Of a DNA stretch of 64,000 bases, positions 4,811 to 63,950 are shown in pieces. A program made the translations under genes and the position numbers. The stretch comes from a virus. Within the stretch, counting starts at the first letter, position 1. The number at the start of each line of letters is the position of its first letter. The stretch is taken from IMG/VR virus record IMGVR_UViG_3300045988_174992; one strand, given 5' to 3'. The notes under the pieces are model-generated. The model was given only the letters and a program-made list of their open reading frames with translations, searched no databases and was not told the DNA's origin.

Positions 4811-5452
4811 TTAGACTTCTAATTTTTTTAATTTGTTCATGGTAGGTGACATCACTATCTCTATAGTGTTTTCTGTGATACGTTGAGTAACATAGAATTT
4901 CCACCCATAAGCATTCATATCAGCTGGTACGGCATATCCTCTCTGTTTTTTAGATTTTCCTGTAGAATTAGGTTCACAATATTCTCCTGGCTTACACTTA
5001 CCATTATCACGTACAATTACTTTACCAATCAAATTTACTCGTACCCATTCTTTACGATTACTACGTTTTACATATTCTTGCTTTGGATCATAATATTGAC
5101 TTGGTACCTGTACATAATGATTATATGGTCTAGTGTGAATATATGAAAACTCTTCTACTTGGTCATACTCTTTTACACCAATAGCAATCTTATCATTCTT
5201 CAAAAACTTATCACCAACTTCATTACACATATATGCATATTTCCAATTGTTTGGATCATCTGAAGTATGTGACGTTTGAATAGTTGTTACACCAAGAATC
5301 TGTTCATCAGAACCAGATTTTACAGGTTCTATCTTATCAGGATTTTCAGAAGAAAATGTAACAAAGAGTCCATAAGGACTCTCTGCTGGTATCTCGGCCC
5401 ACTCATACATTTCTGAATATCCAACTGGATTAATGTATTCGTTATCTTGCAT
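4811..5452 (-). CDS. stand-alone Peptidase_G2 / intramolecular-chaperone (IMC)-like domain protein
   Basis: GYSEMYEWAE..YGLFVTF..ILGVTT..YDPKQEYVKRSNRKEWVRVNLIGKVIVRDNGKCKPGEYC matches my recollection of the fibre C-terminal autoproteolysis domain (DYAEMFEW..FVTL..ILGVVS..R.EW..VGLLGQ..VRDDGTC). Confidence 0.55.
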   Translation of the reverse strand: MQDNEYINPVGYSEMYEWAEIPAESPYGLFVTFSSENPDKIEPVKSGSDEQILGVTTIQTSHTSDDPNNWKYAYMCNEVGDKFLKNDKIAIGVKEYDQVEEFSYIHTRPYNHYVQVPSQYYDPKQEYVKRSNRKEWVRVNLIGKVIVRDNGKCKPGEYCEPNSTGKSKKQRGYAVPADMNAYGWKFYVTQRITENTIEIVMSPTMNKLKKLEV

Positions 5453-5455
5453 TAT

Positions 5456-6055
5456 TTACTCACCATACATATATTTGATTTGAGCATCCAATGTTGGACG
5501 AATCTTCTCCATATATAGAAGAAGATTAGCTGCCTCTTCACGTGGTTTAATAAGACTATACCAATCCTTATACAAATCACTCTCCTTCTTATCCTTAATC
5601 TGCTTAGATGTAAGAATAAACTTAGTTGGCATTGTATCCAAATATGGACTTACAAATCTAGCAAAGTCAGATCCAGAAATTGCATTTGGCAACTTAATTG
5701 TCATAATAGGATTGACCATAGCATTCTCTGCAGCCATCTCTACTGCTAGATCTTCATCCTGTCGATTGTCAATAGGATTCTGTCGTGATACACCTACAAA
5801 CAATACATAGCGCTCTAAAGGGTTTTTACTTGGACCATTCATCTTATAGAGCTTACCTACGAAGGTACTTGCGCAATATGTACCCTTCATAACAGCTCTT
5901 CGTCCGTTATCTAACACAGTTTCCTTTTCACAACTTCGATCAGTATGAATATCTGAAACAACAAACTCATCAACCAACTTCTTTGTACGAATTGTAAATG
6001 GATCTGGCTTAGCACCAATAATTGCATAAGCCTCTTCTAAAGGAATATTCTGCAT
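5456..6055 (-). CDS. hypothetical protein
   Basis: 199-aa ORF tightly packed with its neighbours. Promoter-like motif at 6116-6150 upstream. Confidence 0.6.
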   Translation of the reverse strand: MQNIPLEEAYAIIGAKPDPFTIRTKKLVDEFVVSDIHTDRSCEKETVLDNGRRAVMKGTYCASTFVGKLYKMNGPSKNPLERYVLFVGVSRQNPIDNRQDEDLAVEMAAENAMVNPIMTIKLPNAISGSDFARFVSPYLDTMPTKFILTSKQIKDKKESDLYKDWYSLIKPREEAANLLLYMEKIRPTLDAQIKYMYGE

Positions 6056-6148
6056 TTTTAAATAGTATTTAATTAAATTATTTTATTTAAACATGTACAT
6101 ATTATCATGCACAATTATAATATAGAAATATATGAACTAAAAATTCAT

Positions 6149-6679
6149 TTATCTCGGTAACTTTTTAATATAATGTTCTGAATTACCTTTACAAAGCTTA
6201 ATCAAGGTTTCTGTAAATGCATCTTCAAAATCAGATGGATTTTCAATACCTTCCTTTTCTTCATATTCATTAAGCAATTCATCTCTGATACGATCAGCGA
6301 TATTCTTTGTTTCAATTGGTTTGAACATGATTGCATTAGTCCAATCATCAAGACGTTTCTCTTCAGAATTGTACCATCCTGGTTTTAGTCCACTATCTGG
6401 ATGTGGAATACAATATTCTGCTATACTAGGAATTGCAATGAATCCATCATTTTCCATAGTAAGAACTTTTACCCAATCAAGTTCAATTCCATTATTTCTC
6501 ATAACAAAATAATCTTCAATTGGCAGCCATCCTTCCAACTTCATCAAATTAATGAAATTACCAGCCAATCCACTACCAACAATAGTATCATGTGTCAATT
6601 TATTCTCCATATTATTTAAGAATTTACAAGTTATTATGAAATCTAATTTTCTCAACAATTTAAATAAGAAATTCATCAT
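6149..6679 (-). CDS. hypothetical protein (true start possibly the internal ATG at 6610, MENKLTHD)
   Basis: 176-aa ORF. The first 23 codons overlap the upstream gene end. Confidence 0.55.
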   Translation of the reverse strand: MMNFLFKLLRKLDFIITCKFLNNMENKLTHDTIVGSGLAGNFINLMKLEGWLPIEDYFVMRNNGIELDWVKVLTMENDGFIAIPSIAEYCIPHPDSGLKPGWYNSEEKRLDDWTNAIMFKPIETKNIADRIRDELLNEYEEKEGIENPSDFEDAFTETLIKLCKGNSEHYIKKLPR

Positions 6680-6935
6680 TCTTTCTTTTTACATTACATT
6701 CATTCAGTATGTCATAAGGCAATGAATCTTCTGGTAATTTAATACCATATTTCTTGAAATTATGATATGACTTTTTACAAGCATGATTATATATCACACA
6801 AAAAGCTTGTTCTTTTGTTACTTTCGTGAATAATTTTCCACATATTGGACACTTACATACATCACCTATATTCGCATTCTTATTCTCATTATATTGTAAT
6901 GTAATGATGTTATCTATTTCTTTATTTACATCCAT
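6660..6935 (-). CDS. small Cys-rich (zinc-ribbon-like) protein
   Basis: 91 aa containing CKCPICGKLF plus downstream C..C/H residues. Confidence 0.5.
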   Translation of the reverse strand: MDVNKEIDNIITLQYNENKNANIGDVCKCPICGKLFTKVTKEQAFCVIYNHACKKSYHNFKKYGIKLPEDSLPYDILNECNVKRKNDEFLI

Positions 6936-6947
6936 TTTATTTCTTAT

Positions 6948-7370
6948 TTAAGTCCATTCTACAAAAGCATTCAACTCAAATCCAGAAAGCATCTCTCCAT
7001 GAGTTGCCTTCCACCAAGCATCTTCTACATCATCTGCAATCCAAATAGCTTCTGAATCATTATGACCAGGAAGAACAATAGAAGTACGTGACCAAGTATC
7101 TTCAGAATCATCATACTTTACAAAAATCTTAGTGTTAGTAGGAATATGGATGAATTCATCCTGAAGATATGTCTCATTATTTTCAAGAATAATATCATGC
7201 ATATTGAAATGAATAGGAGTACCTTGAAGAATTTCCTCATGATTCTCAATCTTCTTGAGAAGTTCATCAAAGGTAATTCCTTCAGTAGGATATTCACCAA
7301 AAGTTACCTTTTCATTTTCAACTACGTTTACTATTTCAGGATATACAAAATTCATCATAATTTTATTCAT
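6948..7370 (-). CDS. hypothetical acidic protein
   Basis: 140-aa ORF, first gene of the reverse-strand block, next to a divergent promoter region. Confidence 0.55.
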   Translation of the reverse strand: MNKIMMNFVYPEIVNVVENEKVTFGEYPTEGITFDELLKKIENHEEILQGTPIHFNMHDIILENNETYLQDEFIHIPTNTKIFVKYDDSEDTWSRTSIVLPGHNDSEAIWIADDVEDAWWKATHGEMLSGFELNAFVEWT

Positions 7371-7384
7371 TATTTGTTTGACAT

Positions 7385-7417
7385 TATAAATATAGAATAT
7401 ATAAAAAGAATTTCAAA
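7385..7417 (-). promoter_or_regulatory. Bacteroidota-type -33/-7 promoter-like motif (rc: TTTGAAAT-N-TTCTATATTTATA)
   Basis: Member of a 14-site family with plus-strand core ATATAGAA followed by AATTTCAAA. Lies upstream of reverse gene 6948-7370. Confidence 0.5.
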
Positions 7418-7425
7418 TTAATTTT

Positions 7426-7439
7426 GCAATTTTTATATA
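7426..7439 (+). promoter_or_regulatory. GCAATTTTTATATA box (late-type promoter candidate)
   Basis: Same box lies 17-30 nt upstream of the ATGs at 7469, 24519 and 57141. Variants lie before 26464, 35678 and 49654. Confidence 0.4.
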
Positions 7440-7468
7440 TAAAGTTTAAAACAAGAAAATCTTTTCAG

Positions 7469-10400
7469 ATGGCAATATACGTTAAGAAAACTGGCAATCA
7501 AGATATTGGTGCAATAAAATTAGTAGATTCAAAGACAGATAAGCTTAAAGATATAAATGCAGTCTTTTGGAAAAATATGATGATTTGGCCAAGAGATTCA
7601 AAATATCTTTTCTGGAGCTCAAACAACAAAAACCATGATTTCATTTCTATTGATTCTGCTTTTGACAGAAATGGAATACATGTAAGTGCCGCTAGTCATG
7701 TTGTGACAATATACGTCAGATCTTGTGTAAAATACTGGCATGGAAGATACCCATTCAAAGTAGTACCTTATCAGAACTGGGTAACAGCTCCTAATATAGT
7801 ATATCCTATAGGATGGAACATAAAGACAGCTACTAAGCATGAATATGACGCTTTGTTTGATTTGAACATATCTGGTAATGTATCTACTTCAAGTTCTAGA
7901 ACTACTTATGTATCATTATGGCAAATTGACAGTAAAGATGAACATATAGATACTTCTGCATCTAAATATTCTGGAAAGCAAATAGTGATAAAGATAGTTC
8001 AAGATAAAGATGAAGAAGATCCAAATGCACAACCATCTTATGCAAATGCCATAATCACTTGGTATAAAGATGAGACGTTTTCTGATGAAGTAAAAGAATA
8101 TGGTACCGAAAGCAATCCTTATGTAGATGTGAATGGCAAATCTATTTCTCTGTATTGCAACATAACAGGCACAGTAAAGATGATGTCAGGAAACACAGCA
8201 AGATGTTTCTATGGTGACCATTATGGAGATGTAATTACTATAAATGAACTTAACATAGATAAGAATGCAATGTCATTGGAAAGTTCAGAATATCTTGGTG
8301 ATGGAAACTGGAGGATAAATCTGAAAATGAAGAGCAATGTTCCTACTAGTGCTAACTATACAAATGTAATAAGAGATCTTACATTGTCATCCAGTAGAGT
8401 AGACTATACTGGTGATATTGTTACAATGACCTGGAAAGTGTTTAATGAGGCAAATACTTTGACAAGATATTCCAATGTTGGTTTCTTACTTGGCAGAACA
8501 TATACTTCAACTACTAAGGTTTGGCAACAAGGTGGATATGCAAGTAACCAAGTAACTAATGTAACATGTTCTACTTGGGTGTCAAAAGAAGTTGCAAAAT
8601 GGATAAGCATATCAAATCCACAGATAAATTCTGCTACTTCTTCTTATTATGCCAAAGTAACAGTAAATCCACAGACTACTACTGAAAAGATGTATATTGA
8701 AAACATCAGTACATCTTACGATGATGATATAATTCCTGCAACTGATACATTGTTCCAAATAATGTTTATGATATTCAAAAACACAGGTTATTATGCAGGA
8801 AGAAAGGGTATCATAAATGTTACTTGTGTTTCTGATACTAAATCTGTAGAATTGACCCAAACGGAGCATTCTGGTACATCTTTTAATAAAATTACAGATA
8901 GAGATATAGATAAGAAAAAGATATCTATAGCAGGAATAGTTCCTAATTCTTACTATTCAAACATGATAACTAGCATTACAAACTTAAGATATGATTACAA
9001 TTATCTCATGTGGCTAGCTGATGTTTCCGTTACAAGAAATCCTAAAAAAGTTTTGAATCATGAATTGTCAGTCAACTCTTATCCTAAGGCAGTATCATCA
9101 AAATCCCAGTATCTTGAAATAACTTGGTCTATCATAACTGGTGAAGTGAATTCTTCTCCACGTTATGGAAAGATAAAATTCTCTATTCCTGATTACCATT
9201 GTGAAGATTACTATGATGTAACACAAAACGGTTCTACTGATGCACAAGGAGCTAAGTTTGATAAAGACTATTTAAATAATTCAAAACTATATAATATCAG
9301 TGACAATATTGTTTCTTCATCAACAACTAGTGATCCAAATACAAATCCAAATAGTCCTGGAATAATAAAATTAACTGATAATTTTTACACTGGCACTATA
9401 AAGATAAATGAGAATACTAAACATAATAATACAGTTGCATATATAAAACCAACAGAAATAACTGATTGGTCAGTTTCTGATTTTGACAATTACAACAATG
9501 CTGCATTCTATATAAGGATAAAAGGAAAGAATGTATATATTGGTATTGACAGAAATGTAAAGATAAAGTTGGAAATTACTGGAATAGGTTCAAAAGAAGA
9601 TACTATATTGCAAGAGAAAGCACCATCTGTAGACAGTAATACTTTAGCCAATGTAACAGATTTAGATGTTTCTTCTATTAAGATATCCGGTGAAGCAACA
9701 ACAAACAAATTACCTTATCTTATAACAAATGAAATGTACTGTGTACCTATCATACTGAATAAGAATGCTGTACCTACAAGATATGATTATGCCGTTGTTG
9801 TTGGTTCAAAAGAATATCCTGGATCATTTGATTATGGAGATTATGGTGATATTAATCTTACACCAGAAGATTCAACAGAATATTCAATACCTAACTATGA
9901 CAACATGTATACAGCTGTAACTTCTTGGTGGAGAAGACAAGGAGAAGAAAAGACAAGAACAGTAATATTATCTGTTGATGGAATAACCCAATCTATTACA
10001 AATACATGGACTGGTATAAAATATCAAGGAGACCAGACTTACAGATCTAATTTGTCAGAAGATTATTCTCTAACATTATCTGACTACAACCAACAATGGA
10101 TATCATTGAACCAAAATAATTTGATTTCTTCTTCTAACAGTACTTCTAGTACAAGAAGAATAGGTTTGACAGATACTCTATATCTTGATGATTTAAAACA
10201 GAAGAATCTGAAATTGTCTTTAAAGCAAGAACCAAGAGGAACCAGTACGAATTTCTTGTTTTCTTCTTCATTAGAATATGGAACTATAAAATATCTGAAT
10301 GCTACTGATAGTGCTTCATTCATGATATATAGTTTAGATGATGACTTAATGAAACCATTAGATATAAGTTGGACACCTACTGAGTTCAACAACATGATAT

Positions 10401-52246: not shown

Positions 52247-53191
52247 ATGGGTGCAATACCAGGACAAATGCAAGCAAAATGCATTGATTATGGACAGAAT
52301 TTCTTAACAGGACAAGCAACTTCAGTTATTGCTGCTACTGGTATTGATATAGAAGCTGGCAATTTGAAACAGTTGGCAGATGCTGTACAAGACAAGACTA
52401 TGTCTATGGTTTCTGACTTGAAGAATACAGCTACTAAAGAAGTAACTAAAATTGGAAGTCAGATAGGTGGCATGGCTGGTAGCTTAGTTGGTGCTGGATT
52501 ATCTGCTATGCAAGGAGCTTTTCAAACAGCAGATGTTGCTAAGCAAGCGGTTGGAGAACTTACAACGTATGGGGTTCAACTTACTGCTAAAATCGGTACT
52601 AATATAGCAAGTATGATTGCTGCATTTCCTGCACAAGTTACCAAGAAAGCTACTGCTATAGCTGCAGAACAATGTAAAGAAGAACTTCAACAACGATTGA
52701 AAGAAGTGATGGGTACACCAGCAGAAGAGCATGCACAAAAGGAAGCAGAAAAGGAAAAAGAAAACAAAACAAAGAAAGCAATAACTTGGTGTAAGAAAGC
52801 TGTAAAAGATGTCAATGAATTCAAAGATAAGACACTGTCATCTATTCAGAAAGATTGTGAAGATATATCTGCTTTGATGATACAAGGTCCAGGTTGGGTA
52901 AACAATCAGATGAGTGGTGCTATTGATAGTGCTAAAACATATATGTCTGATTATGCCGATGGCAAAATGAAAGATATTCAGAATCATTATGATGAAGCTG
53001 TGAATAATTCTGCTTACGCCGCAGCTACAACAATGAAGAAAAAACTTATAGATCCAACATTAGAAAAAGCTAAAGAACAATTTAATGATCTTGGAACATC
53101 AACAAATAAGACAAAGCAAAAAGCTAAGACAGCTGTTCAAAAACAGTTGTTCAAGCTTGCAGGAAAATTAGGAATATCACCAAATGGCTAA
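52247..53191 (+). CDS. Ala/Gln/Lys-rich coiled-coil protein (scaffold-, internal- or small-terminase-like; unassigned)
   Basis: 314 aa. Translationally coupled to terL through an ATGGCTAA overlap. Confidence 0.5.
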   Translation: MGAIPGQMQAKCIDYGQNFLTGQATSVIAATGIDIEAGNLKQLADAVQDKTMSMVSDLKNTATKEVTKIGSQIGGMAGSLVGAGLSAMQGAFQTADVAKQAVGELTTYGVQLTAKIGTNIASMIAAFPAQVTKKATAIAAEQCKEELQQRLKEVMGTPAEEHAQKEAEKEKENKTKKAITWCKKAVKDVNEFKDKTLSSIQKDCEDISALMIQGPGWVNNQMSGAIDSAKTYMSDYADGKMKDIQNHYDEAVNNSAYAAATTMKKKLIDPTLEKAKEQFNDLGTSTNKTKQKAKTAVQKQLFKLAGKLGISPNG

Positions 53192-55985
53192 AGAATTTGA
53201 ATTTGACCCAGTAAAGAGAGATAAAGGAGGAAAAGAGGCAGAAGCGGTCATCTGGAGCTGCTCAGTACTTGAAAAGGCTGTAGATGCCATGAAGAAGGGT
53301 TTGCCATTGAAAGCAAACCCTTTTATTGGTAAGAATACTAAGTTATTGAAGCCAGATCTGGTCTTCAAGCGTACACAAGAAGAGATAGAAGACTATATGC
53401 ATTGTATGGAAGATCCATTGTACTTTGCTACTAAATGCTATCTTATGACTCCAACTGGTTTGCAACCAGTAATACTTCGTGACTATCAGGAAGATTATAT
53501 GAGGCATCTTCAGAAAAACAGATTCAGTTTGTTCTTGAGTTGCAGACAAAGTGGTAAAACATTTTTAGAAAATACAAATGTGAAATTTTTGTTTACTAAT
53601 TCATTCATAAACAATTATAGCATTAAGTTTGGTAAACAAAAATTTACATATCTCTTTAAGAATTTCAAATATGTAAAAAGTGGATCTGATTATTTGTTTG
53701 AATTGCCTTTTTATGAGTTTCAAAACTTGTTTGATGATACTGTTTACTGGAAACTGAAATACAATCTATATAAGAAAAAGAAATATCATGCAGTAGAAGT
53801 TGTCGACTGGTTAGAATACAATTTTTTATTCCACAAGAAACTTCTTGACAATTACAAAACAACTAAAGAAATAGATATTTCCAATTATGGAATAAAAGTA
53901 TTGACAGATGTTGGATATCAACCAATATCATACATTTACAATACTAAACCATTTGCAATATATAAAGTAATCCTTGAAAATGGATATTCTATAGAATGTG
54001 CAGACAAGCACATGTTGTTTGATGATAATTTGAATATAGTATATGCTGATGAACTTGTTGAAAGTGTTTCTAAAATAATGACAGATAAAGGACCATCTGT
54101 AGTAAAGTCTGTTTCAATATCCAAAGTAAAAGTATCTATGTGTGATGTTTCTGTGGATCATCCTTATCACAGATATTATACTAATGGAATATTAAGTCAC
54201 AACTCAACAACAACAGCTATATTCTGCCTTTGGTCGGTATTGTTCAGAAATGATAGAAATGCGTTGATACTTTCTAAATCTGGTCCAGCTGGACAAGATT
54301 TGATAAAGAAGATAAAAGATATGTACTTGTATCTTCCTTATCATTTGAAGCTTGGTACTTTGAAGTGGAATCAATCAGAAATAGCTTTTGACAACAACTC
54401 TACAATATCTACTGAAGCTTTCTCTCCTACTGCCGGTCTTGGTAAGACAATAAACTTCTTGATACTTGATGAGTTTGCTTGGTGCCCACCTAATGATGTA
54501 GAATTATTCTACAACAACATTCTTCCTACTGTTACTGCAGATACAAGCTCTAATATATGTATCATGTCAACACAGAACGGATTCAATTTGTTCTATAAGC
54601 TATGGCATGCCGCAGAAACAGGAAAGTCTATGTATGCTCCATTTAAAGTAGATTGGTGGCAAGTTCCTCAATGGGATCCAGAAAATCATATTTGGAAGAA
54701 GAGAGATAATGCTTGGAAAACTATGATGGTTGGTGTCTTAGGTTCTGAAGAAGCTTTCTACTACCAATACGGTACTCAATTCTCTGCATCAGATAAATGT
54801 CTTGTATCAAGAGAATGCTTAGGTAAGATAAGAGATTTGACTTATCTGTTTGAGACACCTACAGATGATAGTTGGTATTTCAGCTTACATAAGACAGAAC
54901 TTAAGTTCAAGAAAGATTATGACTTGCATTGGTTGAAGATAGGATGGTTCATCATATTGGTTGACTTAGCAGAAGGTGGTGGCAATGACTTTACAACGTT
55001 CAATATAATAGAAGTAATAGGAAAAGACAAGTTTGAACAAGTAGGATATTGGCATTGCAACACCATAGATTTGGAACAAGCTAGCTTAGAGTTTTGGGTA
55101 TTGTATGGACAGCTATTCAATCCTAATAAGACTATAGTGTCAGTAGAATGGAATACTTATGGGGCTTTATTCTACAACTATCTTAAGAATTTGAATGAAC
55201 CTGAATATATGCCAGAAGCAAGTTGGAGATGGCAAGTAAACCCATTAGGAGAATTTGACTTGGCTAACTTGATAAGATATAAGAAAGGCAGTCAAGAAGA
55301 CAATATTGCTAACTTGAATGGATTCAAAAACAGCAAGACAATTCCTGGAATCAGATTAAGCCATGCTACTAAGATATCTGCATGTGCATTGCTTAAGATG
55401 ATGTTAGAGAAGTTTGATGTCATAATAACAGATTTGCTTACCGTTTCAGAGCTTGAGAATTTTGAAGATAAGAATGGAAATGGCAGCTATGCCGCGGCAT
55501 ACGGACATGATGATTTGATAATGACTTTTGTACAACTTCCACTTCTTAAGAACACTACAAAATATAAAGATTTCATAGAAGAATGGGAGATAGAAATGAA
55601 AGCTACAGGTCAATGGGAACAAATAGAAAAAGAAGAGTCAGAAATGAAGAAACTAGATATGCTTAAGAAGATAGCAGATATGATGGCCAATGTATTGCAG
55701 AAAAGAAAAGAAGAGAAACAAGTAACTGTATCATTGAACAACAGAAATCTACCTACTGCTACTGCTGTAAATTCTTCTGATATATATAGAGAAGCACAAA
55801 GTAATGCAAGTACCAGTATACCTAACATGTATACAATGTACAATACAAGTATGCAACAAGGATTACCATCTATGAATGACTTTTATGGGTCACCTAATGG
55901 ATATGGAAATGAACCAAGCATATATGATATGCCAGGACAATACAACCAAGATCCATTGAGAGCTAGATTCAGACAATTCAACTAA
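53184..55985 (+). CDS. terL: terminase large subunit, T4 gp17-like, interrupted by Hint/intein-like insertion
   Basis: DYQEDYM..LSCRQSGK|..|STTTAIFCLW (T4: RDYQRDML..LSRQLGKTTVVAIFLAH); WNQSEIAFDNNSTI..LILDEFAW (T4: WNKGSIELDNGSSI..IYIDECAF); STQNGFNLFYKLW; YGHDDLIMTFV (T4: GYHDDLVMSLV). Confidence 0.9.
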   Translation: MAKEFEFDPVKRDKGGKEAEAVIWSCSVLEKAVDAMKKGLPLKANPFIGKNTKLLKPDLVFKRTQEEIEDYMHCMEDPLYFATKCYLMTPTGLQPVILRDYQEDYMRHLQKNRFSLFLSCRQSGKTFLENTNVKFLFTNSFINNYSIKFGKQKFTYLFKNFKYVKSGSDYLFELPFYEFQNLFDDTVYWKLKYNLYKKKKYHAVEVVDWLEYNFLFHKKLLDNYKTTKEIDISNYGIKVLTDVGYQPISYIYNTKPFAIYKVILENGYSIECADKHMLFDDNLNIVYADELVESVSKIMTDKGPSVVKSVSISKVKVSMCDVSVDHPYHRYYTNGILSHNSTTTAIFCLWSVLFRNDRNALILSKSGPAGQDLIKKIKDMYLYLPYHLKLGTLKWNQSEIAFDNNSTISTEAFSPTAGLGKTINFLILDEFAWCPPNDVELFYNNILPTVTADTSSNICIMSTQNGFNLFYKLWHAAETGKSMYAPFKVDWWQVPQWDPENHIWKKRDNAWKTMMVGVLGSEEAFYYQYGTQFSASDKCLVSRECLGKIRDLTYLFETPTDDSWYFSLHKTELKFKKDYDLHWLKIGWFIILVDLAEGGGNDFTTFNIIEVIGKDKFEQVGYWHCNTIDLEQASLEFWVLYGQLFNPNKTIVSVEWNTYGALFYNYLKNLNEPEYMPEASWRWQVNPLGEFDLANLIRYKKGSQEDNIANLNGFKNSKTIPGIRLSHATKISACALLKMMLEKFDVIITDLLTVSELENFEDKNGNGSYAAAYGHDDLIMTFVQLPLLKNTTKYKDFIEEWEIEMKATGQWEQIEKEESEMKKLDMLKKIADMMANVLQKRKEEKQVTVSLNNRNLPTATAVNSSDIYREAQSNASTSIPNMYTMYNTSMQQGLPSMNDFYGSPNGYGNEPSIYDMPGQYNQDPLRARFRQFN
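53559..54203 (+). mobile_element. intein-like (Hint domain) insertion in the terL Walker A loop, 215 aa
   Basis: Lies between GK and STTT. Starts TFLENTNV (block A CLxxDTxV with Thr in place of Cys). Block B-like AIYKVILENGYSIECADKHMLF, block F-like MCDVSVDHPYHRYY, block G NGILSHN followed by +1 Ser. Confidence 0.7.
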
Positions 55986-55993
55986 TTAAAACA

Positions 55994-56085
55994 TTCACCA
56001 GGATGGCGGATAATTCAATCACCTGATAAATTATACTTATTAGCAATTATCCGCTCCCTGCGCATCCCAGCCGCCATCCTGGTGA
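55994..56085. terminator. long bidirectional hairpin between terL and 56040-56483
   Basis: caccaggatggcggataatt pairs with aattatccgc[17-nt bulge]cgccatcctggtg. Confidence 0.6.
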
Positions 56086-56483
56086 TTGCTTTGCTTATTC
56101 ATTACATCTAATATCTTATTGTATTCTTCATCTGTAACATTTATGATAATATCATCATTTGTTCCAAATTTTCCATCAGAACCAGGAAGTTTATGTTCAT
56201 ATTTTTCTGACCACACTTTTGTCAAACCAACAGAAGTGAAAACAGCTGCTACTGCTGTTATATAAGCTGCCATTGCTGTCAAATCCGTAGTTATGGTATG
56301 ATTATACCAAGCTTCTATAGTAAGAGAGAATATTGGTACAGCAAGCAGTAAAGTACCAATGAATGTAACAACAACTAAAAAGAAACTTTTGCTGCTATAT
56401 CCTGAATTTTGCTGAACAAGCTTACTGAAGAAATTTCCTTTTACTATTTTCTTTATATATACGGTCATTTTAGAAAAGTCCAT
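56040..56483 (-). CDS. two-TM membrane protein
   Basis: TM segments FFLVVVTFIGTLLLAVPIFSL and AMAAYITAVAAVFTSVGL. The last 15 codons are supplied by GC-rich element E3. Confidence 0.55.
   Translation of the reverse strand: MDFSKMTVYIKKIVKGNFFSKLVQQNSGYSSKSFFLVVVTFIGTLLLAVPIFSLTIEAWYNHTITTDLTAMAAYITAVAAVFTSVGLTKVWSEKYEHKLPGSDGKFGTNDDIIINVTDEEYNKILDVMNKQSNHQDGGWDAQGADNC
56045..56087 (-). repeat. GC-rich 3'-end element, copy E3
   Basis: rc reads AATCACCAGGATGGCGGCTGGGATGCGCAGGGAGCGGATAATTG. Confidence 0.6.
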
Positions 56484-56565
56484 AGTTTAAGTTAAAATAT
56501 CTATCTGTATAAAAATCTTCAGAATATACAAAAAATGACAGAACTTAATGTCCTGTCAGCATCAA

Positions 56566-58022: not shown

Positions 58023-58033
58023 TTTCTTTTTAG

Positions 58034-58106
58034 AGCCATTAACCGGGTATGATCCGATAACCTTCTGTTTACAAAACAGATGCTCTACCAATTGAGCTAT
58101 AATGGC
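58034..58106 (-). tRNA. tRNA-Thr(UGU)
   Basis: Acceptor GCCATTA/TAATGGC, D arm GCTC..GAGC, anticodon arm TCTGT[TTTGTAA]ACAGA. Confidence 0.85.
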
Positions 58107-58248
58107 ATATAAAATCAAATATGGCATCAGATGTGCAAACTATCATGACCATATTCTAGTAATACATTGAGCTATCAGGAGTACCCGTAGATTGCACTGA
58201 CACCTCTAACAACTGCCTAGTTAAATGCTAGGTCCTCTCTATTACTTG

Positions 58249-58322
58249 TGGAGATGATGGAGTATGATTCCATATAATCTGTCTTGCAAGGACAGTGCTC
58301 TATCCATTTAAGCTACATCCCC
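58249..58322 (-). tRNA. tRNA-Ala(UGC)
   Basis: Acceptor GGGGATG/CATCTCC with the G3:U70 identity pair. Anticodon arm CTGTC[CTTGCAA]GACAG. Confidence 0.85.
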
Positions 58323-58517
58323 ATTTCTAGTACTTATTCATTGTACTAAAATATATTCTGTAGCGAATTATATGCAGAATAATATTTTATATATGTACAA
58401 TGAAGTAAGGTTGGCAGGTACTAGAACCTTCAAGTGATTAGCTTGACCATATCCATTTTGAGTAGCGTTCAAAATCAAAGATTTATCACGCCGCCTCTAA
58501 ATAATCGTTGCCGTTTG

Positions 58518-58590
58518 CTGGCACCCTGGGACTCGAACCCAGGACCTTGAACTTAACGGGTTCCTGCTCTACCAACTGAGCTAAGCACCA
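58518..58590 (-). tRNA. tRNA-Asn(GUU), atypical (C33, three G:U pairs in acceptor)
   Basis: D arm GCTCAGTTGGTAGAGC, anticodon arm GGAAC[CCGTTAA]GTTCA, T arm CTGGG[TTCGAGT]CCCAG. Confidence 0.65.
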
Positions 58591-58621
58591 ATCAATTCTT
58601 CACAGTGAATTACTCTGTTAG

Positions 58622-58703
58622 TGATGGGTGTGGGAGTCGAACCCACTATTGTACGGCTTATGAGACCGACGTGATTTATAAATATCCGTTTCACTCACCC
58701 ACG
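58622..58703 (-). tRNA. aberrant CAU-anticodon tRNA (Met/Ile2-like) with 16-nt D loop
   Basis: Acceptor CGTGGGT/ACCCATC (C1xC72 mismatch), D stem GTGA/TCAC, loop CTCATAA on a 4-bp stem, T arm GTGGG[TTCGACT]CCCAC. Confidence 0.5.
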
Positions 58704-58719
58704 ATATATAGTTAACTAT

Positions 58720-59745
58720 TTAAATAATAGTATTTTCTTTTAAATATTTCAAGAATTCATTAAATTTTTCTTTAACAAAATTTTTATTTGCCTTCCCCAT
58801 ATCTTTTATAATATAAGGTGTCCAACCACATTCTTCAATTTCTTTTATCTTTATTTTATCCCTATTTTGTGTTTGTTTAACAGAATGTGATTTTGTAATT
58901 TGTTTATAATGCCATGGGCCATTCCATAATACCGCAAATTTTATATCTTCTATTATTATATCTGCATCCCATCCATTAAATATACATTCATTATGTTTAA
59001 TATTATTAAAATATTCTTCACATAATTTACAGAATTCAATTTCATTTTTACTACGTCTTAAATCACCTTGATGTTGTATTCCTTTGCAACCACCATTATG
59101 TAAACCTAACCAACTTTCTTTAGAAAATAATTTACCATTGATATAATGATATCCCTTTAATTTTAATTTTTCAATTTCTTTATTTCGTTTATCTTCTAAT
59201 TCTTTTAATTGGGATAAATTCAATAATTCCCTTTTAATTATTTCTATTTTCTTTGTTAGTTTTTTATATTCATAATATTCATCATCTATTTTATTAGAAT
59301 TATGTACCTTATTTATGTGTTTTGGTTTACATTCATCACACATACAAGTTTTTATTGATGCTCTTGATGATATTGTTATTTCTTTACCACATTCAATGCA
59401 TTTCGCTTGTTTAGTATTTCCTGTAGATAATTTTCCTACATAAGAATGTGAACATTCAAGACTACAAAAATATTTTTTATTTATGTCAAATTTATTTTGT
59501 CTTTCCTTAATTTTAAATTCTTTTCCACAATTAAAACATTTTACATTATATTCTAATAGTGGATTTTTTCTTTGATATGCAATTTGTAATGCTATGCCAG
59601 AATTTTTTGAACATTTAGCAACACGTTCATCAGTTTCATTTGTAAGGCCTGAATTCCACATTAATTTATGGTTTGGATTCATTTTACAATATTTTTCATG
59701 TTGCTTTACATTTTTATATTCTTTATTGCAATATCTACATTCCAT
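58720..59745 (-). CDS. Zn-ribbon-rich protein with C-terminal PD-(D/E)xK (Vsr/DUF559-like) endonuclease module; free-standing homing-endonuclease candidate
   Basis: CRYCNKEY..C, CFNCGKEF..CSLEC and CIECGKEI..CMCDEC ribbons, then RSKNEIEF..WDADIIIEDIKFAVLWNGPWHY..RDKIKIKEIEECGWTPYIIKD. Confidence 0.55.
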   Translation of the reverse strand: MECRYCNKEYKNVKQHEKYCKMNPNHKLMWNSGLTNETDERVAKCSKNSGIALQIAYQRKNPLLEYNVKCFNCGKEFKIKERQNKFDINKKYFCSLECSHSYVGKLSTGNTKQAKCIECGKEITISSRASIKTCMCDECKPKHINKVHNSNKIDDEYYEYKKLTKKIEIIKRELLNLSQLKELEDKRNKEIEKLKLKGYHYINGKLFSKESWLGLHNGGCKGIQHQGDLRRSKNEIEFCKLCEEYFNNIKHNECIFNGWDADIIIEDIKFAVLWNGPWHYKQITKSHSVKQTQNRDKIKIKEIEECGWTPYIIKDMGKANKNFVKEKFNEFLKYLKENTII

Positions 59746-59755
59746 AATTTTAATG

Positions 59756-59784
59756 ATTGTCAGACTACTTGGCAGTCTGACAAT
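59756..59784 (-). other. 11-bp stem-loop 11 nt upstream of the endonuclease start
   Basis: attgtcagact/agtctgacaat with a 7-nt loop. Confidence 0.6.
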
Positions 59785-59960
59785 TTGTATGTTATTTCAA
59801 AGAATTTTCGGGGCCGAGGCATGTCCTTAAGTACCATCGTATGGGACATTTTATCAGTTTCTCCTAATCTTCAACGTGCTATATTATGAGGTAGCGCTAC
59901 TTCTCTTTTCAACGTTCCATGAACTAGTATACTCCCTGGTACGGACTCGATGTTTAATTG

Positions 59961-60034
59961 TACTCCAGGAGGGACTTGAACCCCCGACCACTTGGGTATA
60001 AGCCGAGCACTCTAACCAACTGAGTTACTGGAGT
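59961..60034 (-). tRNA. tRNA-Ile(UAU)
   Basis: Acceptor ACTCCAG/CTGGAGT, D arm ACTC..GAGT, anticodon loop CTTATAC, T loop TTCAAGT. Confidence 0.75.
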
Positions 60035-60045
60035 ATTTATTTATA

Positions 60046-60080
60046 TTAAATATAGAACAACTATATCCAAAATTTCAAAG
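60046..60080 (-). promoter_or_regulatory. -33/-7 promoter-like motif inside the tRNA array
   Basis: ttaaatatagaacaactatatccaaaatttcaaag, immediately upstream of tRNA-Ile(UAU). Confidence 0.5.
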
Positions 60081-60087
60081 AATTTTG

Positions 60088-60161
60088 TAGGTGGTATAGG
60101 ACTTGAATCTATGACCTCTTGCTTATCAGGCAAGCTATCTAACCAACTGATATAACCACCT
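60088..60161 (-). tRNA. tRNA-Ile(GAU)
   Basis: Acceptor AGGTGGT/ACCACCT, anticodon arm CTTGC[CTGATAA]GCAAG. Confidence 0.8.
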
Positions 60162-60167
60162 AAATTG

Positions 60168-60239
60168 TTGGACCACGGAGGTTCGAACTCCGAATGACAG
60201 AACCAAAATCTGTAGTGTTTCCAATTACACCATAGTCCA
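60168..60239 (-). tRNA. tRNA-Gln(UUG)
   Basis: Acceptor TGGACTA/TGGTCCA, anticodon arm ACAGA[TTTTGGT]TCTGT, T arm CGGAG[TTCGAAC]CTCCG. Confidence 0.85.
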
Positions 60240-60248
60240 ATTTATTTG

Positions 60249-60325
60249 CGGAGCATAAGGGACTCGAACCCTTAGTTTTACTAGAGTGACAGTCTAGTTC
60301 CCTTACCAACAGGGCTTAATACTCC
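60249..60325 (-). tRNA. tRNA-Asp(GUC)
   Basis: Acceptor GGAGTAT/ATGCTCC, anticodon arm CTAGA[CTGTCAC]TCTAG, T arm AAGGG[TTCGAGT]CCCTT. Confidence 0.8.
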
Positions 60326-60474
60326 CAATACTGATTAAAGTCTCAGTTAGCTGCACATCAATCTCCTATGTGGCTTTTGCAATAACTTTAGTTGCAAGCA
60401 ACATAAAGCGTTGATTATATCTAAATTGCTCACACATCACTTTGTCATGATTTTCATTTGTTCTTTTGACCCAG

Positions 60475-60557
60475 TGGGCAGAGAGAGATTCGAACTCCCG
60501 AAGGCCGAAGCCATTTGATTTACAGTCAAACCATTTTAACCACTTATCTATCTACCC
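60475..60557 (-). tRNA. tRNA-Tyr(GUA)
   Basis: Acceptor GGGTAGA/TCTGCCC, anticodon arm TTTGA[CTGTAAA]TCAAA, long variable arm TGGCTTCGGCCT. Confidence 0.85.
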
Positions 60558-60568
60558 AATTTTATTAG

Positions 60569-60640
60569 TAGCCGCAGCGAGAATCGAACTCGCCTTGACA
60601 GATCGAAAATCTGTAGTACTAACCACTATACGATACGGCC
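60569..60640 (-). tRNA. tRNA-Glu(UUC)
   Basis: Acceptor GGCCGTA/TGCGGCT, anticodon arm ACAGA[TTTTCGA]TCTGT, T arm GCGAG[TTCGATT]CTCGC. Confidence 0.85.
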
Positions 60641-60762
60641 ATTTAGTACACCCTTATTCCATTCTGCAGCAATGGGAATGTACAAGGTCAGTAGGTTGAC
60701 CAGCCTCCATATTGGTTTATTTAAGAGAACCAACGTTAAACTGTTTTGATTAAACTCTTTCG

Positions 60763-60833
60763 TGCCAGAAGTGAGAATCGAACTCGCCTTGACAGATCGA
60801 AATCTGTAGTACTAACCACTATACGATACTGGC
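60763..60833 (-). pseudogene. degenerate duplicate of tRNA-Glu (6-nt anticodon loop)
   Basis: Body identical to tRNA-Glu (TCGTATAGTGGTTAGTACTACAGA...) but the loop is TTTCGA. Has a C:A mismatch in the T stem and a U:U mismatch in the acceptor. Confidence 0.6.
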
Positions 60834-60843
60834 ATTCAAATTA

Positions 60844-61035
60844 TTATTTTTGACATAATTGCTTGATCTTATTCTTAATTCTTTCTAGTGTTACACTAGA
60901 TTCCTCATTAAATTGATCAGTATCAATAACTGCATCTATTACCATAAGCAATTGCATGAATCTCATATCTGGAAACATCCAGGCAAATTGCTTTGTAATA
61001 TCCAATATCTTAATGTTTGCTTCTAATCTTGTCAT
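60844..61035 (-). CDS. hypothetical small protein
   Basis: 63-aa ORF with promoter-like motif at 61067-61103. Confidence 0.45.
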   Translation of the reverse strand: MTRLEANIKILDITKQFAWMFPDMRFMQLLMVIDAVIDTDQFNEESSVTLERIKNKIKQLCQK

Positions 61036-61066
61036 AATAATTATGTTTTAATGTTTTATAACTTAC

Positions 61067-61103
61067 ATATATAATATAGATTTGATTTATCAGTATTTCA
61101 AAG
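61067..61103 (-). promoter_or_regulatory. -33/-7 promoter-like motif (variant ATATAGAT)
   Basis: tatataatatagatttgatttatcagtatttcaaag. Confidence 0.4.
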
Positions 61104-61158
61104 ATCTTTCAAAAAATTTTCATTTTTTTTTTTGTTTATCAACTTTTTTAAATCAACA

Positions 61159-61186
61159 AAGAGCAACACATTTCTGCATTGCTCTT
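61159..61186 (-). terminator. stem-loop after 61364-61987
   Basis: 8-bp stem aagagcaa/ttgctctt with a 12-nt loop. TTGTTGATTT follows on the reverse strand. Confidence 0.4.
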
Positions 61187-61363
61187 GTCTTGATTGTATT
61201 GTTGAATGTTTAAACAGTGGAGGCATTGTTTAAATTATACACATACAAGACTTGATATGTATAATTATATGTTCTCATTTGTTTAATATTTCTATGTTCA
61301 TTAATTAATTATAATCTATAAATAGATAAATGGTCTATAAATTTTGGTTAAATATTGTTAAAA

Positions 61364-61987
61364 TTACTTTTTTACATTCTTTAATGAATCATCAGAGAAT
61401 ACATATAAGAATTTTGAACCTTTACTTAAATACAAATTAGTACGGAATTGTATACCAGTAATAAGCTTATCATCAACAATACACATAACTGGATATACAT
61501 TAACAACTGCTGTACCTTCTCCTGTCTTTACATACATATCCTTTTCAAGAGTAATAATTTCTTGATTGAATATGGCATCCATCTTTTTAAGTTCTCTATC
61601 CATTTCATCAGTCAAACCCAACCTTTTAAGTTCTTTATTTGCATATAATACATTCTTAATGGTAAGTTTCTTATTTTCAATAGATGCATCTTGATCTTTA
61701 AGATATTTATTAATATTGATTAGGTCAACAAATCCACGTTGGCCAACACTATAAAGATCTGCTTTATTCTGGATGTCATCGTAAGCTTGTCTTGCATTAT
61801 CATCATTTACTGCATAATAAGGACCATCACCAATAACCTTCTTACAAGCAGCCTCAAGTTCTTTATGCCGTTTCTTAGAAAAACCTACTTTTGTAAACAA
61901 ATCCTTCAAAGTATCAAATTCTTCTGCATTCTTGATAATATAAGATGAATCAAGTGATTCATAAATAGATTGTACTAATGATTTCAT
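61364..61987 (-). CDS. hypothetical protein with CTS-like N-terminus
   Basis: MKSLVQSIYESL..., with 8 of the first 12 residues identical to 45563-45934. Confidence 0.6.
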   Translation of the reverse strand: MKSLVQSIYESLDSSYIIKNAEEFDTLKDLFTKVGFSKKRHKELEAACKKVIGDGPYYAVNDDNARQAYDDIQNKADLYSVGQRGFVDLININKYLKDQDASIENKKLTIKNVLYANKELKRLGLTDEMDRELKKMDAIFNQEIITLEKDMYVKTGEGTAVVNVYPVMCIVDDKLITGIQFRTNLYLSKGSKFLYVFSDDSLKNVKK

Positions 61988-62273
61988 TTTATTTCTTTTT
62001 ATTTTTTTTTTTTTATTTCTTTTTAATGATGATTAAAAATAATATATAGATATCACATATTTTGAGATAGGTGTGTCCATCAATTCCACTATGGAAGTAA
62101 TAAAATAAATTGATAGCAAGTACGTACTTCTTGCATCAGACCTTCGTGTAGAGTTTACATGGTGTTTTTAGTTATTTATCCTTAGTATGCACCGTATTTA
62201 CCCACAGCTTTAAGCATACTTACCTTCATAACTCGTCTTTCTTCCTTCTCTATTCAAGATTGCTATCAATTTG

Positions 62274-62359
62274 TACTCCGAACGGGGATCGAACCCGTAC
62301 AACCATTCCTGGTCAAGGGATTTTAAGTCCCTCGTGTATACCAATTTCACCATCGGAGC
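62274..62359 (-). tRNA. tRNA-Leu(UAA)
   Basis: Acceptor GCTCCGA/TCGGAGT, anticodon arm AGGGA[CTTAAAA]TCCCT, long variable arm. Confidence 0.85.
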
Positions 62360-62629
62360 ATTTAGGAATTACAAAAGGTGACGCTACCGGTGTCTGCACC
62401 TAAAACTTCATTCCTGTCCATACATATAGTTATCCAGATAGTATATTATGGTGGTTTCATCTAACTTACTGACTTCTTTAGAATTCGTTAGAAGTTCTGA
62501 AGCGATCTGTTTAAGCAGATCCATAACTCGTTTACTAATCATACTTTATTCTCTTTAGGATAACATAGAGAGCCATTAGACTTCCATACTAATGTTAGAC
62601 TTTCATAAATTACATTATTTCAACGATTG

Positions 62630-62712
62630 TGGGAATAGTGGGACTCGAACCCACACGCTATTGAAGCACCAGATCCTAAGTCTGGCCTGGCTACCAATTA
62701 CAGCATATTCCC
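62630..62712 (-). tRNA. tRNA-Leu(UAG)
   Basis: Acceptor GGGAATA/TATTCCC, anticodon arm CCAGA[CTTAGGA]TCTGG, long variable arm, T arm GTGGG[TTCGAGT]CCCAC. Confidence 0.85.
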
Positions 62713-62719
62713 AAATTAG

Positions 62720-62793
62720 TGGCGTAAGATGGGCTCAAGCCAACGACCTCATCAGCATGAATGATGCGCTCTAATCAACTGAGCTATTACGCC
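62720..62793 (-). tRNA. tRNA-Met(CAU) (or Ile2/initiator; not distinguishable by eye)
   Basis: Acceptor GGCGTAA/TTACGCC, D arm GCTC..GAGC, anticodon arm CATCA[TTCATGC]TGATG. T arm is atypical. Confidence 0.7.
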
Positions 62794-63175
62794 ATTGTGG
62801 GCATACCCTATTTTATAGAATTACTTCCCACATAATTCAACCATCTTAAGCAGGTGTACGAATCTCATGACAATTCGCTTGGGCGATATATTCTCTTATA
62901 ATCAGAATGTTTTACGATGCTTTAAACTACTGAGCCATACAGGCCCTGACTGCATAGTGAACTTAAATGAATCAATTAGTTTAACAAGCGTTACCAAACC
63001 TTATACTTGTTATTTCATTGACATTTAAAATACAAATGTAGGGAGGCGGCCATAGGTTTGGCTTCCTTCATCCGCGCTTTGTATATGTTTCATGCAATTA
63101 CTGTGCACATAATTGCACTACTCTTCTCAGCTACATTGTTTTTATTCAATCACCAGTATATTCTGATCACGTTTG

Positions 63176-63247
63176 GGGTTCCTTAGAGAATCGAACTCTA
63201 ATAAGGAGAACCACAATCTCCTGTCCTACCATTGAACGAAAGAACCC
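63176..63247 (-). tRNA. tRNA-His(GUG) with encoded G-1
   Basis: G-1 plus GGTTCTT/AGGAACC, discriminator C, anticodon arm GGAGA[TTGTGGT]TCTCC. Confidence 0.85.
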
Positions 63248-63264
63248 ATATATATTAGCAATGT

Positions 63265-63669
63265 TTATGCTACATTATTAATATAGAAATTATCTTCTAA
63301 AGTTTCATCGTAAATATCATCATATTCTTGAATTCCTTCATTGATAAGTTTCTTGTTGTTGACACGTTGCAACTTGATTTTTCGCTTAGCATCAATTTTG
63401 TCTGATACATAAGTACGATATCCAGAGCCATTCTTCAAAAACCTAGCCCACGGATCACATTTCTTCATTTCTCTCCATGAAGTTGGTCTTCTCAAATTAG
63501 GAATCATTATTGTACGTCTGATTTTCTTACCATTGGCATCATTCATGTTGAATGAATATTCTTTCTTACCATCAGTAAAAATACTATCAAACATGAACTT
63601 CTTACAACGAGAATTCCACTTTGATTCAGTCTTCTTTCTTCTCCAAGCTCTATTTCTAATGTTACTCAT
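63265..63669 (-). CDS. hypothetical basic protein embedded in the tRNA array
   Basis: 134 aa, Lys/Arg-rich (MSNIRNRAWRRKKTESKW...). Confidence 0.55.
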   Translation of the reverse strand: MSNIRNRAWRRKKTESKWNSRCKKFMFDSIFTDGKKEYSFNMNDANGKKIRRTIMIPNLRRPTSWREMKKCDPWARFLKNGSGYRTYVSDKIDAKRKIKLQRVNNKKLINEGIQEYDDIYDETLEDNFYINNVA

Positions 63670-63700
63670 ATATTAACAACATTTTAAAATTAAAAACTTG

Positions 63701-63772
63701 CACACCGGACTGGAATCGAACCAATACCTGCAGTTTTGGAGACTGCTAGCCTAACCATTAACCGACCGGTGC
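63701..63772 (-). tRNA. tRNA-Trp(CCA)
   Basis: Acceptor GCACCGG/CCGGTGT, anticodon arm GCAGT[CTCCAAA]ACTGC. Confidence 0.85.
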
Positions 63773-63784
63773 GTATGAAATTTG

Positions 63785-63857
63785 TAGGGTAGACCGGACT
63801 TGAACCGACGACCACTGCATCCCAAATGCAGCATTCTACCAACTGAACTACTACCCT
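63785..63857 (-). tRNA. tRNA-Pro(UGG)
   Basis: Acceptor AGGGTAG/CTACCCT, anticodon arm CTGCA[TTTGGGA]TGCAG. Confidence 0.85.
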
Positions 63858-63872
63858 TTATAAAGATATTAG

Positions 63873-63950
63873 AGCATCAGACGAGATTCGAACTCGCGAA
63901 AGCCTTCTGGTTGGAAGCCAGATGTGCACCACCAACTACACCACTGATGC
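63873..63950 (-). tRNA. tRNA-Gly(UCC)
   Basis: Acceptor GCATCAG/CTGATGC, anticodon arm TCTGG[CTTCCAA]CCAGA. Confidence 0.8.

Follow-up and report, generated by a model that had tools for sequence, protein, structure and literature searches.

A putative intein with threonine at position 1 in the Walker A loop of a phage large terminase

The 64,000-nucleotide (nt) stretch of viral DNA analyzed in this work (IMG/VR record IMGVR_UViG_3300045988_174992), hereafter called the window, carries a terL gene for a phage large terminase whose Walker A loop is interrupted by an intein-like insert beginning with threonine (Thr1). The product of this open reading frame (ORF) matches gp17-type large terminases by tblastn, its Pfam matches to Terminase_6N and Terminase_6C being only weak, and no second terL copy was detected by tblastn in the window, where the gene is single-copy. 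The insert extends from T126 to N340 of the precursor (215 amino acids (aa), 645 nt, positions 53559-54203), in frame within Walker A, and is preceded by ...LSCRQSGK and followed by STTTAIFCLW...; the joined flanks give CRQSGK-STTTAIF. Its boundaries are exact, because intein-free alleles run through ...GK/STTTAI... (a slash marks a junction). Exactly 645 nt are missing from 14 related terL genes in IMG/VR; among the relatives, which are denoted here by L and P numbers, the intein-free L013-L026 read SCRQSGK/STTTAIYCLW (proteins 63% identical) and L006 reads ACRQAGK/SVTTAIFCLW (84% identical). The original prediction, made from the window alone, had proposed that a 215-aa intein-like insert splits the Walker A of terL and that intein-free alleles should be sought in related contigs; these alleles, which read GK/STTT at the same point, bear out the proposal.

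Thr1 is real, recurrent and selectively maintained. Its codon in the window, ACA, is shared by at least five distinct contiguous alleles (the window, L007, L008, L011/L116, L117 and the partial P0003), and TGC, coding for Cys1, stands at the same position in the contiguous alleles L009/L119, L012, L118 and L121. All contiguous Thr1 and Cys1 inteins compared are 645 nt long and belong to phage contigs of ~245-295 kb or to independent gut-metagenome assemblies. At least five distinct Thr1 alleles are split, with intact ORFs and a coverage of 24-32x: L003/L010/L122, L120 and L124 (ACA), L034 (ACT, with a 54% identical body), and L125 (ACC). The TGC and ACA codons differ at all three positions, and both two-step routes from TGY to ACY go via a Ser codon. 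The reading of the first residue as Thr was thus correct in the original prediction, and an assembly error behind the codon, one of the pitfalls it had named, is contradicted by the repetition of ACA in independent assemblies; Thr1 aligns with Cys1 of the sister alleles.

The ratio of nonsynonymous to synonymous divergence (dN/dS, Nei-Gojobori), calculated without the partial allele L115/P0003 because of an indel, is 0.07-0.20 for the intein among Thr1 alleles versus 0.11-0.28 among Cys1 alleles. The synonymous divergence (dS) of the intein (0.10-0.18) is about equal to that of the adjoining extein (0.14-0.19), and Thr1 has therefore accompanied the gene throughout the divergence of the phage cluster. 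A search of viral contigs with the DNA pattern for FLSCRQSGKT revealed no new Thr1 inteins, returning the known Thr1 loci and the intein-free L109 and L112, which have GKT in Walker A.

Judging by its sequence and predicted fold, the insert is a true Hint-fold intein, contiguous (in cis) and endonuclease-less, located in the TerL Walker A loop; its family is that of the atypically split TerL inteins (AceL-TerL, GOS-TerL, Cat-TerL; VidaL-like; "fractured genes"), of which it is the contiguous form. The Pfam family Intein_splicing is matched below threshold (E 1e-4, 22.6 bits versus a cut-off of 35.8 bits), and Pfam finds no endonuclease family in the insert, in line with the earlier claim that a homing-endonuclease domain is lacking. 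A sequence search of PDB matches VidaL, gp41-1 and Cat, the consensus atypical TerL intein. In the AlphaFold2 model, the Hint body has predicted local distance difference test (pLDDT) values mostly of 85-97, with ~81 in one 10-residue block. Of the 46 Foldseek matches at E<=1e-3, VidaL (6vgv) and Cat (6dsl) rank highest; the matches listed are nearly all inteins, plus two intein-like (BIL) domains. Block B (GYSIECADKHMLF), block F (VSMCDVSVDHPYHRYY) and the C-terminal junction ..NGILSHN/S, recognized from the beginning, are all present. So are the class-1 residues H151 (B:10), D196 (F:4), H214-N215 and S+1, each of them kept in every Thr1 allele aligned; most of the family has Ala instead of Thr at B:7. 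The only Cys residues of the insert are C147 and C195. Class 1 is defined by Cys1 or Ser1, and residue 1 of the insert is instead Thr, a hydroxyl nucleophile. The features of the locus are summarized in Table 1.

Table 1. Predicted features of the terL gene and its insert in the window (residues are numbered from the first residue of the insert)
Feature	Position	Strand	Basis or remark
terL precursor ORF, 933 aa (718 aa minus intein)	53184..55985	+	ORF; weak Pfam Terminase_6N, Terminase_6C; tblastn
N-extein, up to and including the first part of Walker A (...SCRQSGK)	53184..53558	+	0 aa differences among Thr1 sister alleles
Intein codon 1, ACA = Thr (TGC = Cys in sister alleles)	53559..53561	+	Allele comparison
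Block A strand, residues 1-12, TFLENTNVKFLF	53559..53594	+	Aligns with CFLQNTTVKFLF in Cys1 alleles and with split N-halves from position 1; AlphaFold2 strand 7-12
Lineage-specific expansion inside block A, residues 13-43	53595..53687	+	Alignment; AlphaFold2 helices and hairpin, pLDDT 58-65
Block A end, residues 44-58, DYLFELPFYEFQNLF	53688..53732	+	Conserved 'LPxFELxNLF' motif of the N-halves
Helix, residues 59-75, DDTVYWKLKYNLYKKKK	53733..53783	+	Homologous to the C-terminal tail of the N-half; AlphaFold2 helix 60-72; break of split alleles directly after
Helix and linker, residues 76-107, YHAVEVVDWLEYNFLFHKK-LLDNYKTTKEIDI	53784..53879	+	Homologous to the N-terminal leader of the C-half; AlphaFold2 helix 76-93
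Hint-fold body, residues 108-215	53880..54203	+	~40% identity to Ackermannviridae TerL intein; PDB, AlphaFold2, Foldseek
Block B	53982-54020	+	His151 at 54009-54011
Block F	54132-54179	+	Cys195 = F:3, Asp196 = F:4
Block G	54180-54203	+	His214-Asn215
C-extein, beginning with Ser+1 (TCA), the Walker A Ser, then TTTAIFCLW...	54204..55985	+	Flank sequence, intein-free alleles

The extra ~100 residues that precede the Hint body comprise, by the alignments, an expansion of block A by ~30 aa and two helices that match the end of IntN and the start of IntC, the N- and C-terminal intein halves of split relatives. In a MAFFT alignment, the contiguous intein of the window is collinear with IntN plus IntC of the split alleles, the break of which falls between ...WKLKYNLYKKKK and YHAVEVVDWLEY... 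of the window (...KYNLYKKKK / YHAVEVVDW...). The block-A expansion varies in length among the relatives and is missing in L050. In the original prediction, ISNYGIKVLTDVGYQ had been taken for a second block-A-like strand of a duplicated N-lobe. It aligns instead with gp41-1 from residue 17 onward, the strand after block A, and opens the Hint body in every relative, including every split C-half. The 100-aa segment, which had seemed unprecedented, is likewise accounted for by a split-site module collinear with the IntN tail and the IntC leader. The helix pair would dock the two halves together in the split alleles and is simply fused in the cis form; the same module is found in the contiguous Cys1 members L037, L050, L057, L058 and L091.

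Split alleles illustrate how the gene is fractured. In the huge-phage record LR756500 (L002), terL stops after ...ARQTGK/CFFHNILITIKL...LPIFELYY...SRS-stop; the stop is followed by a 366-aa ORF with a Vsr/DUF559-like C-terminus and then by a new ORF, MIKKILKK...SYIQVLTDTGYEEL...NGILSSQ/TICSS.... The arrangement of a stop, a homing endonuclease gene (HEG) of ~345-400 aa with a Vsr/DUF559-like C-terminus, and a new start is common to L002, L003/L010/L122, L120, L124, L034 and L126; Pfam REase_MTES_1575/DUF559 matches were weak and sub-threshold, in two of three HEG ORFs scanned. In the alleles L004 and L125, the break is at the same position and no HEG separates the halves. The window copy is one continuous ORF with no free-standing HEG, and its split sisters have a 90% identical Hint body; L003/L010/L122 and L120 are near-isogenic to the window, with C-exteins identical over the 60 residues compared. 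The split Thr1 allele L010/L122 combines a Hint body 90% identical to the contiguous alleles with an IntN that is only 43% identical to theirs and closest (61%) to L004. The intein alleles are thus mosaics that arose by recombination near the break. Fractured genes with Vsr-like endonucleases were described previously, with phage terminase among the hosts (Dassa 2009, PMC2677866), and the break lies close to "S2", the site of the atypical split in AceL-TerL and GOS-TerL (PMC13014065).

Further peculiarities were observed among the fractured relatives. At the L126 locus (5001-8807), the terL intein is of the Ser1/Ser+1 type and split, its halves are separated by a 403-aa ORF for a Vsr-like endonuclease, and neither half contains Cys, so that this atypically split intein is naturally Cys-free. 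In P0005, Cys and a sequence resembling IntN come immediately after IntC (SHN/CVGFNTLIDV...), and this gene looks multiply fractured. Several terL C-halves (P0011, P0013, P0017 and P0021 were noted) end at Walker B in ...SLLY/C..(E/G).T.V.V..., which resembles the N-half of a second split intein. Right after the fractured terL of LR756500 (L002, 5136-5948) lies a 270-aa ORF resembling the N-terminal ATPase region of terL, in which Walker A is degenerate (SSRQMGIS).

The distribution of residues at position 1 was assessed in a wider clade. Single-sequence searches with the 107-aa N-lobe of the window were nearly empty (a word-indexed search returned P0003 only, and an exhaustive phmmer search of 1.84 billion representatives returned P0003 and P0001 only) because this lobe has diverged too far and its composition is too biased. 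A more productive query, the N-half ORF of a split Thr1 allele, gave 296 proteins; the best 120 of these, taken for analysis, are representatives of 90%-identity clusters and almost all ~200-240 aa long. Among the 119 N-halves with a recognizable junction (118 representatives and the query), position 1 is Ser in 48, Cys in 36, Thr in 35, and nothing else; Thr1 is thus present in 34 of the 118 database representatives, and some of the clusters have 61-92 member sequences. Close pairs differ at this position, namely P0040 (T) and P0042 (C), which are only a few residues apart across the N-half, P0061 (C) and P0062 (S), and P0027 (T) and P0033 (C). Parsimony on a neighbor-joining tree requires at least 30 changes at position 1, compared with ~55 for shuffled tip states. 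In the IMG/VR sample of the more distant family, the junction residue is Cys in every allele outside this clade. A fast-switching site that is limited to Cys, Ser and Thr, while Ala, Gly, Pro, Asn, Ile, Phe and Tyr are one mutation away yet absent, argues that a nucleophile is needed at position 1, and this speaks for class-1 chemistry by way of a Thr1 N-O acyl shift. Whether the whole clade is a nucleophile-promiscuous scaffold, in which Cys, Ser and Thr would have been swapped ~30 times among near-identical contiguous and split alleles, we regard as an evenly balanced question.

The insert is probably a functional class-1-type intein that uses Thr1 as its nucleophile. In such a mechanism, the whole precursor would be translated, and an N-O acyl shift of Thr1 onto the Lys(-1) carbonyl would form an oxyester; the N-extein would then pass to Ser+1 by transesterification, Asn215 would cyclize with the assistance of His214, and an O-N shift would yield ...CRQSGK-STTTAIF... 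with an intact P-loop (junction stretch LSCRQSGKSTTTAIF). A Thr-mediated N-O acyl shift was among the explanations offered in the original prediction, and it is the one that the evidence favors. There are experimental precedents for exchanges at this position: splicing occurs in the Tli pol-2 intein with the S1T mutation (PMC2807308), and GOS-TerL, a member of the same broad family as the window intein, works with either Ser1 or Cys1 (PMC11766414).

Several observations weigh against this interpretation. The case for function is indirect, being drawn from conservation, purifying selection and an essential host gene, and the single-copy status of terL applies to a 64-kb window of a genome of roughly 250-300 kb. 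An [R/K]-His "motif NX" is the reported signature of oxyester (Ser1) inteins (PMC10189870), and this motif is absent in the window, where no His occurs between residues 93 and 150. Elsewhere among inteins, a C1S replacement usually abolishes activity (PMC10189870). The N-lobe part of the AlphaFold2 model has only moderate confidence (pLDDT 58-75). Thr1 and Cys1 alleles show no obvious compensating difference in the active site. Covariation was seen at residue 99 alone (window 53853-55), which is Tyr in all contiguous Thr1 alleles (DNYKTT) and Cys in the contiguous Cys1 alleles L009, L012, L118 and L121 (DNCKTT); the split Cys1 allele L004 has Tyr there, and the difference could be either a linked polymorphism or a partner of Cys1, such as in a disulfide. 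Finally, the restriction to Cys, Ser and Thr could result in part from mutational input, for example from co-conversion of the Walker A Ser/Thr codon of the recipient during homing. Intein-free alleles have Ser or Thr after GK, and heteroduplex repair in the course of homing could transfer this codon to intein codon 1; in L126, TCA encodes both Ser1 and residue +1.

Other explanations of the insert have to be weighed against splicing by Thr1. The Cys of the block-F 'MCD' had suggested, in the original prediction, a class-3-like mechanism. Cys195 would then attack the N-terminal junction, with Thr1 taking no part. Block F indeed reads M-C-D in every Thr1 allele that the scans of viral and gut contigs yielded, and class 3 inteins are common in phages (PMC2807308); however, M-C-D is present equally in Cys1 alleles. 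The positions of the class 3 Trp-Cys-Thr (WCT) triplet (Trp B:12, Cys F:4, Thr G:5) were assigned from the gp41-1 alignment, the engineered WCT variant of gp41-1 being F65W/D107C. By this alignment, Cys195 corresponds to Ile106 of gp41-1 (F:3), F:4 is Asp196 as in class 1, B:12 is Leu153 rather than Trp, and G:5 is Ser213, so that the Trp and the Cys of the triplet are missing. Thr1 and the block-F Cys went together in the first sample, an association broken by the Thr1 allele L125, which has C-M-T-D (Thr at F:3), and by the Cys-free Ser1 allele L126. Class 3 inteins start with residues such as Ala or Pro, whereas position 1 is never a non-nucleophile among the 119 relatives. All this makes a class-3-like route very improbable. 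In class 2 inteins (KlbA type), residue 1 is non-nucleophilic (Ala) and Cys+1 attacks directly. By analogy, Ser+1 might attack the scissile bond at the N-terminal junction with no need for a nucleophile at position 1, which would suit the sterically poorer nucleophilicity of Thr and the lack of the Ser1-type 'NX' histidine. A dispensable position 1 should nevertheless show Ala, Gly or Pro, each one mutation off, instead of only Cys, Ser and Thr in 119 sequences with ~30 switches, and the known class 2 inteins use Cys+1 (PMC5222942), whereas residue +1 is Ser here; direct attack by Ser+1 is very unlikely on these grounds.

It was also suggested that the intein might be dead and terL pseudogenized, in which case packaging would depend on another terminase or on co-infecting Cys1 phages. 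Inactivation of many inteins by C1S and similar replacements (PMC10189870) and the occurrence of Cys1 and Thr1 alleles together in one IMG/VR sample would fit such a scenario. It is difficult to reconcile with 933-aa ORFs that are intact in every allele, with the conservation of the other catalytic residues, or with a Thr1 that persisted through the divergence of the cluster under purifying selection, as the dN/dS values and the equal dS of intein and extein indicate; the share of Thr1 among the N-halves and the lack of a second terL in the window add to this, and we give a splicing-dead Thr1 only a small chance. An error behind the Thr codon, or removal of the AT-rich first 321 nt as an intron at the RNA level, can practically be dismissed. 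The GC content of the insert (21-31%) is below that of the flanking terL (34-42%), and it is 24% in these 321 nt, in favor of this reading. This segment is open in the terL frame, with 8 and 13 stops in the other two frames, and only 1.5e-5 of its shuffles stay open; moreover, its change is mostly synonymous, and a scan of positions 52500-56500 detected no group I introns or other Rfam families at E<=1. The open frame and the lack of an Rfam match indicate that the segment is translated. As for an error, ACA and TGC are three differences apart, and these differences recur in many independent assemblies.

Among the known systems, the atypically split TerL inteins (AceL-TerL, GOS-TerL, Cat-TerL; VidaL) are the most similar in that they too are hosted by the phage large terminase, their Hint body is related in sequence and fold (PDB 6dsl for Cat and 6vgv for VidaL are the best matches), and the split in sister alleles of the window lies near the N terminus and leaves a long C-half. 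They differ from the window copy, which is contiguous, has Thr as residue 1, and has an N-part of 75-107 aa versus 25-37 aa, longer because of the block-A expansion and the helix pair added at the break. The layout that Dassa et al. 2009 (PMC2677866) described as fractured genes corresponds to the sisters L003/L122, L124, L034, L126 and L002, which consist of an N-half ORF, a Vsr-like ORF and a C-half ORF, in contrast to the window, with neither an endonuclease gene nor a break, and to L004 and L125, split without an endonuclease. The TerL mini-intein of the Ackermannviridae (Vi1-like), annotated in Klebsiella phage Magnus, occupies the same site (..RQSGK/C....SHN/TTVV; GK/CVRGD...), shares ~40% identity over the Hint body, and is also contiguous and endonuclease-less; however, it is 159 aa long, has Cys1, and contains only a short linker in place of the helix pair of the window. 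Oxyester chemistry, expected at both junctions of the window intein (Thr1/Ser+1), links it with Cys-less class-1 inteins such as PolB16 OarG and Aes123 PolB1, the former of which is also atypically split (PMC10189870). Those inteins have Ser1 and the 'NX' [R/K]-His (with Ser+1 or Thr+1), whereas the window intein has Thr1, no such His, and near-identical Cys1 sisters. Class 3 (WCT) inteins such as MP-Be DnaB and MchDnaB1 are likewise phage-associated and lack Cys1 or Ser1, but the window lacks the Trp and Cys of their triplet, and its position 1 is restricted to nucleophiles.

The host of the gene is a phage of roughly 250-300 kb with a T4-like packaging module, and relatives come from human-gut metagenomes. 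Just downstream of terL, 17 tRNA genes are arrayed on the - strand (window 58033-63950); they include tRNA-Thr(UGU), the reader of ACA, and an ARAGORN call with an abnormal two-base anticodon (60762-60833). In two independent assemblies with the same sequence (L004, 1440-1460, and L005), the terL C-extein has an in-frame TAG where the window has Tyr (KKIKDM-stop-LYLPYY versus KKIKDMYLYLPYH in the window), after which the frame carries on normally; stop-codon reassignment or suppression may operate in that phage. The same intein body, with YYTNGILSHN, also sits in the P-loops of other phage ATPases (L039, L040, L064-L069, L086, L104, L106; P0008-P0010, P0014-P0016). In one group of these, the C-extein starts with TTIINALSYALYG..., another group comprises ClpA/AAA_2-like proteins, and residue 1 is Cys wherever the N-half was found.

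Terminase P-loop inteins, atypically split TerL inteins, Vsr-like fractured genes and Ser1 oxyester inteins are already described, and the contiguous form with fused split-site helices is a modest variant of them. The new element appears to be Thr at position 1. Intein texts give this position as Cys or Ser (PMC13014065, PMC8529194; 2021 and 2026 papers), and, according to Perler's group, Thr1 "has not been observed" though it should be chemically competent (PMC2807308). We found no report of a natural Thr1 intein in the literature searched, the coverage of which was incomplete, and this negative is no proof of absence. A set of Thr1 inteins that is natural, abundant and maintained by selection would fill a gap in textbook accounts.

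In the current view, the active sites of Cys1 inteins and of those with a hydroxyl nucleophile are separately specialized and not interconvertible (PMC10189870). A frequent natural interchange of Cys, Ser and Thr runs against that view, and against experiments in which Cys1 could not readily be exchanged (PMC10189870), as ~90% identical alleles carry Cys1 or Thr1, and N-halves a few residues apart carry Cys or Ser, or Cys or Thr. If the clade is indeed a promiscuous scaffold, it would provide the first natural Thr1 inteins as well as split forms without a catalytic Cys, including at least one wholly Cys-free Ser1 allele. Its active site would need no dedicated thiol-versus-hydroxyl tuning, and the switches may be seeded by homing co-conversion of the Walker A Ser/Thr codon into codon 1. 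Cys-independent, atypically split inteins with short N-fragments are rare and wanted for protein semisynthesis, and the clade offers dozens of candidates (Thr1/Ser+1 and Ser1/Ser+1, one of them entirely Cys-free). Finally, intein-free, contiguous, split-without-HEG and split-with-HEG states are found in one phage population, which makes it a good system for studying the fracturing of genes by HEGs.

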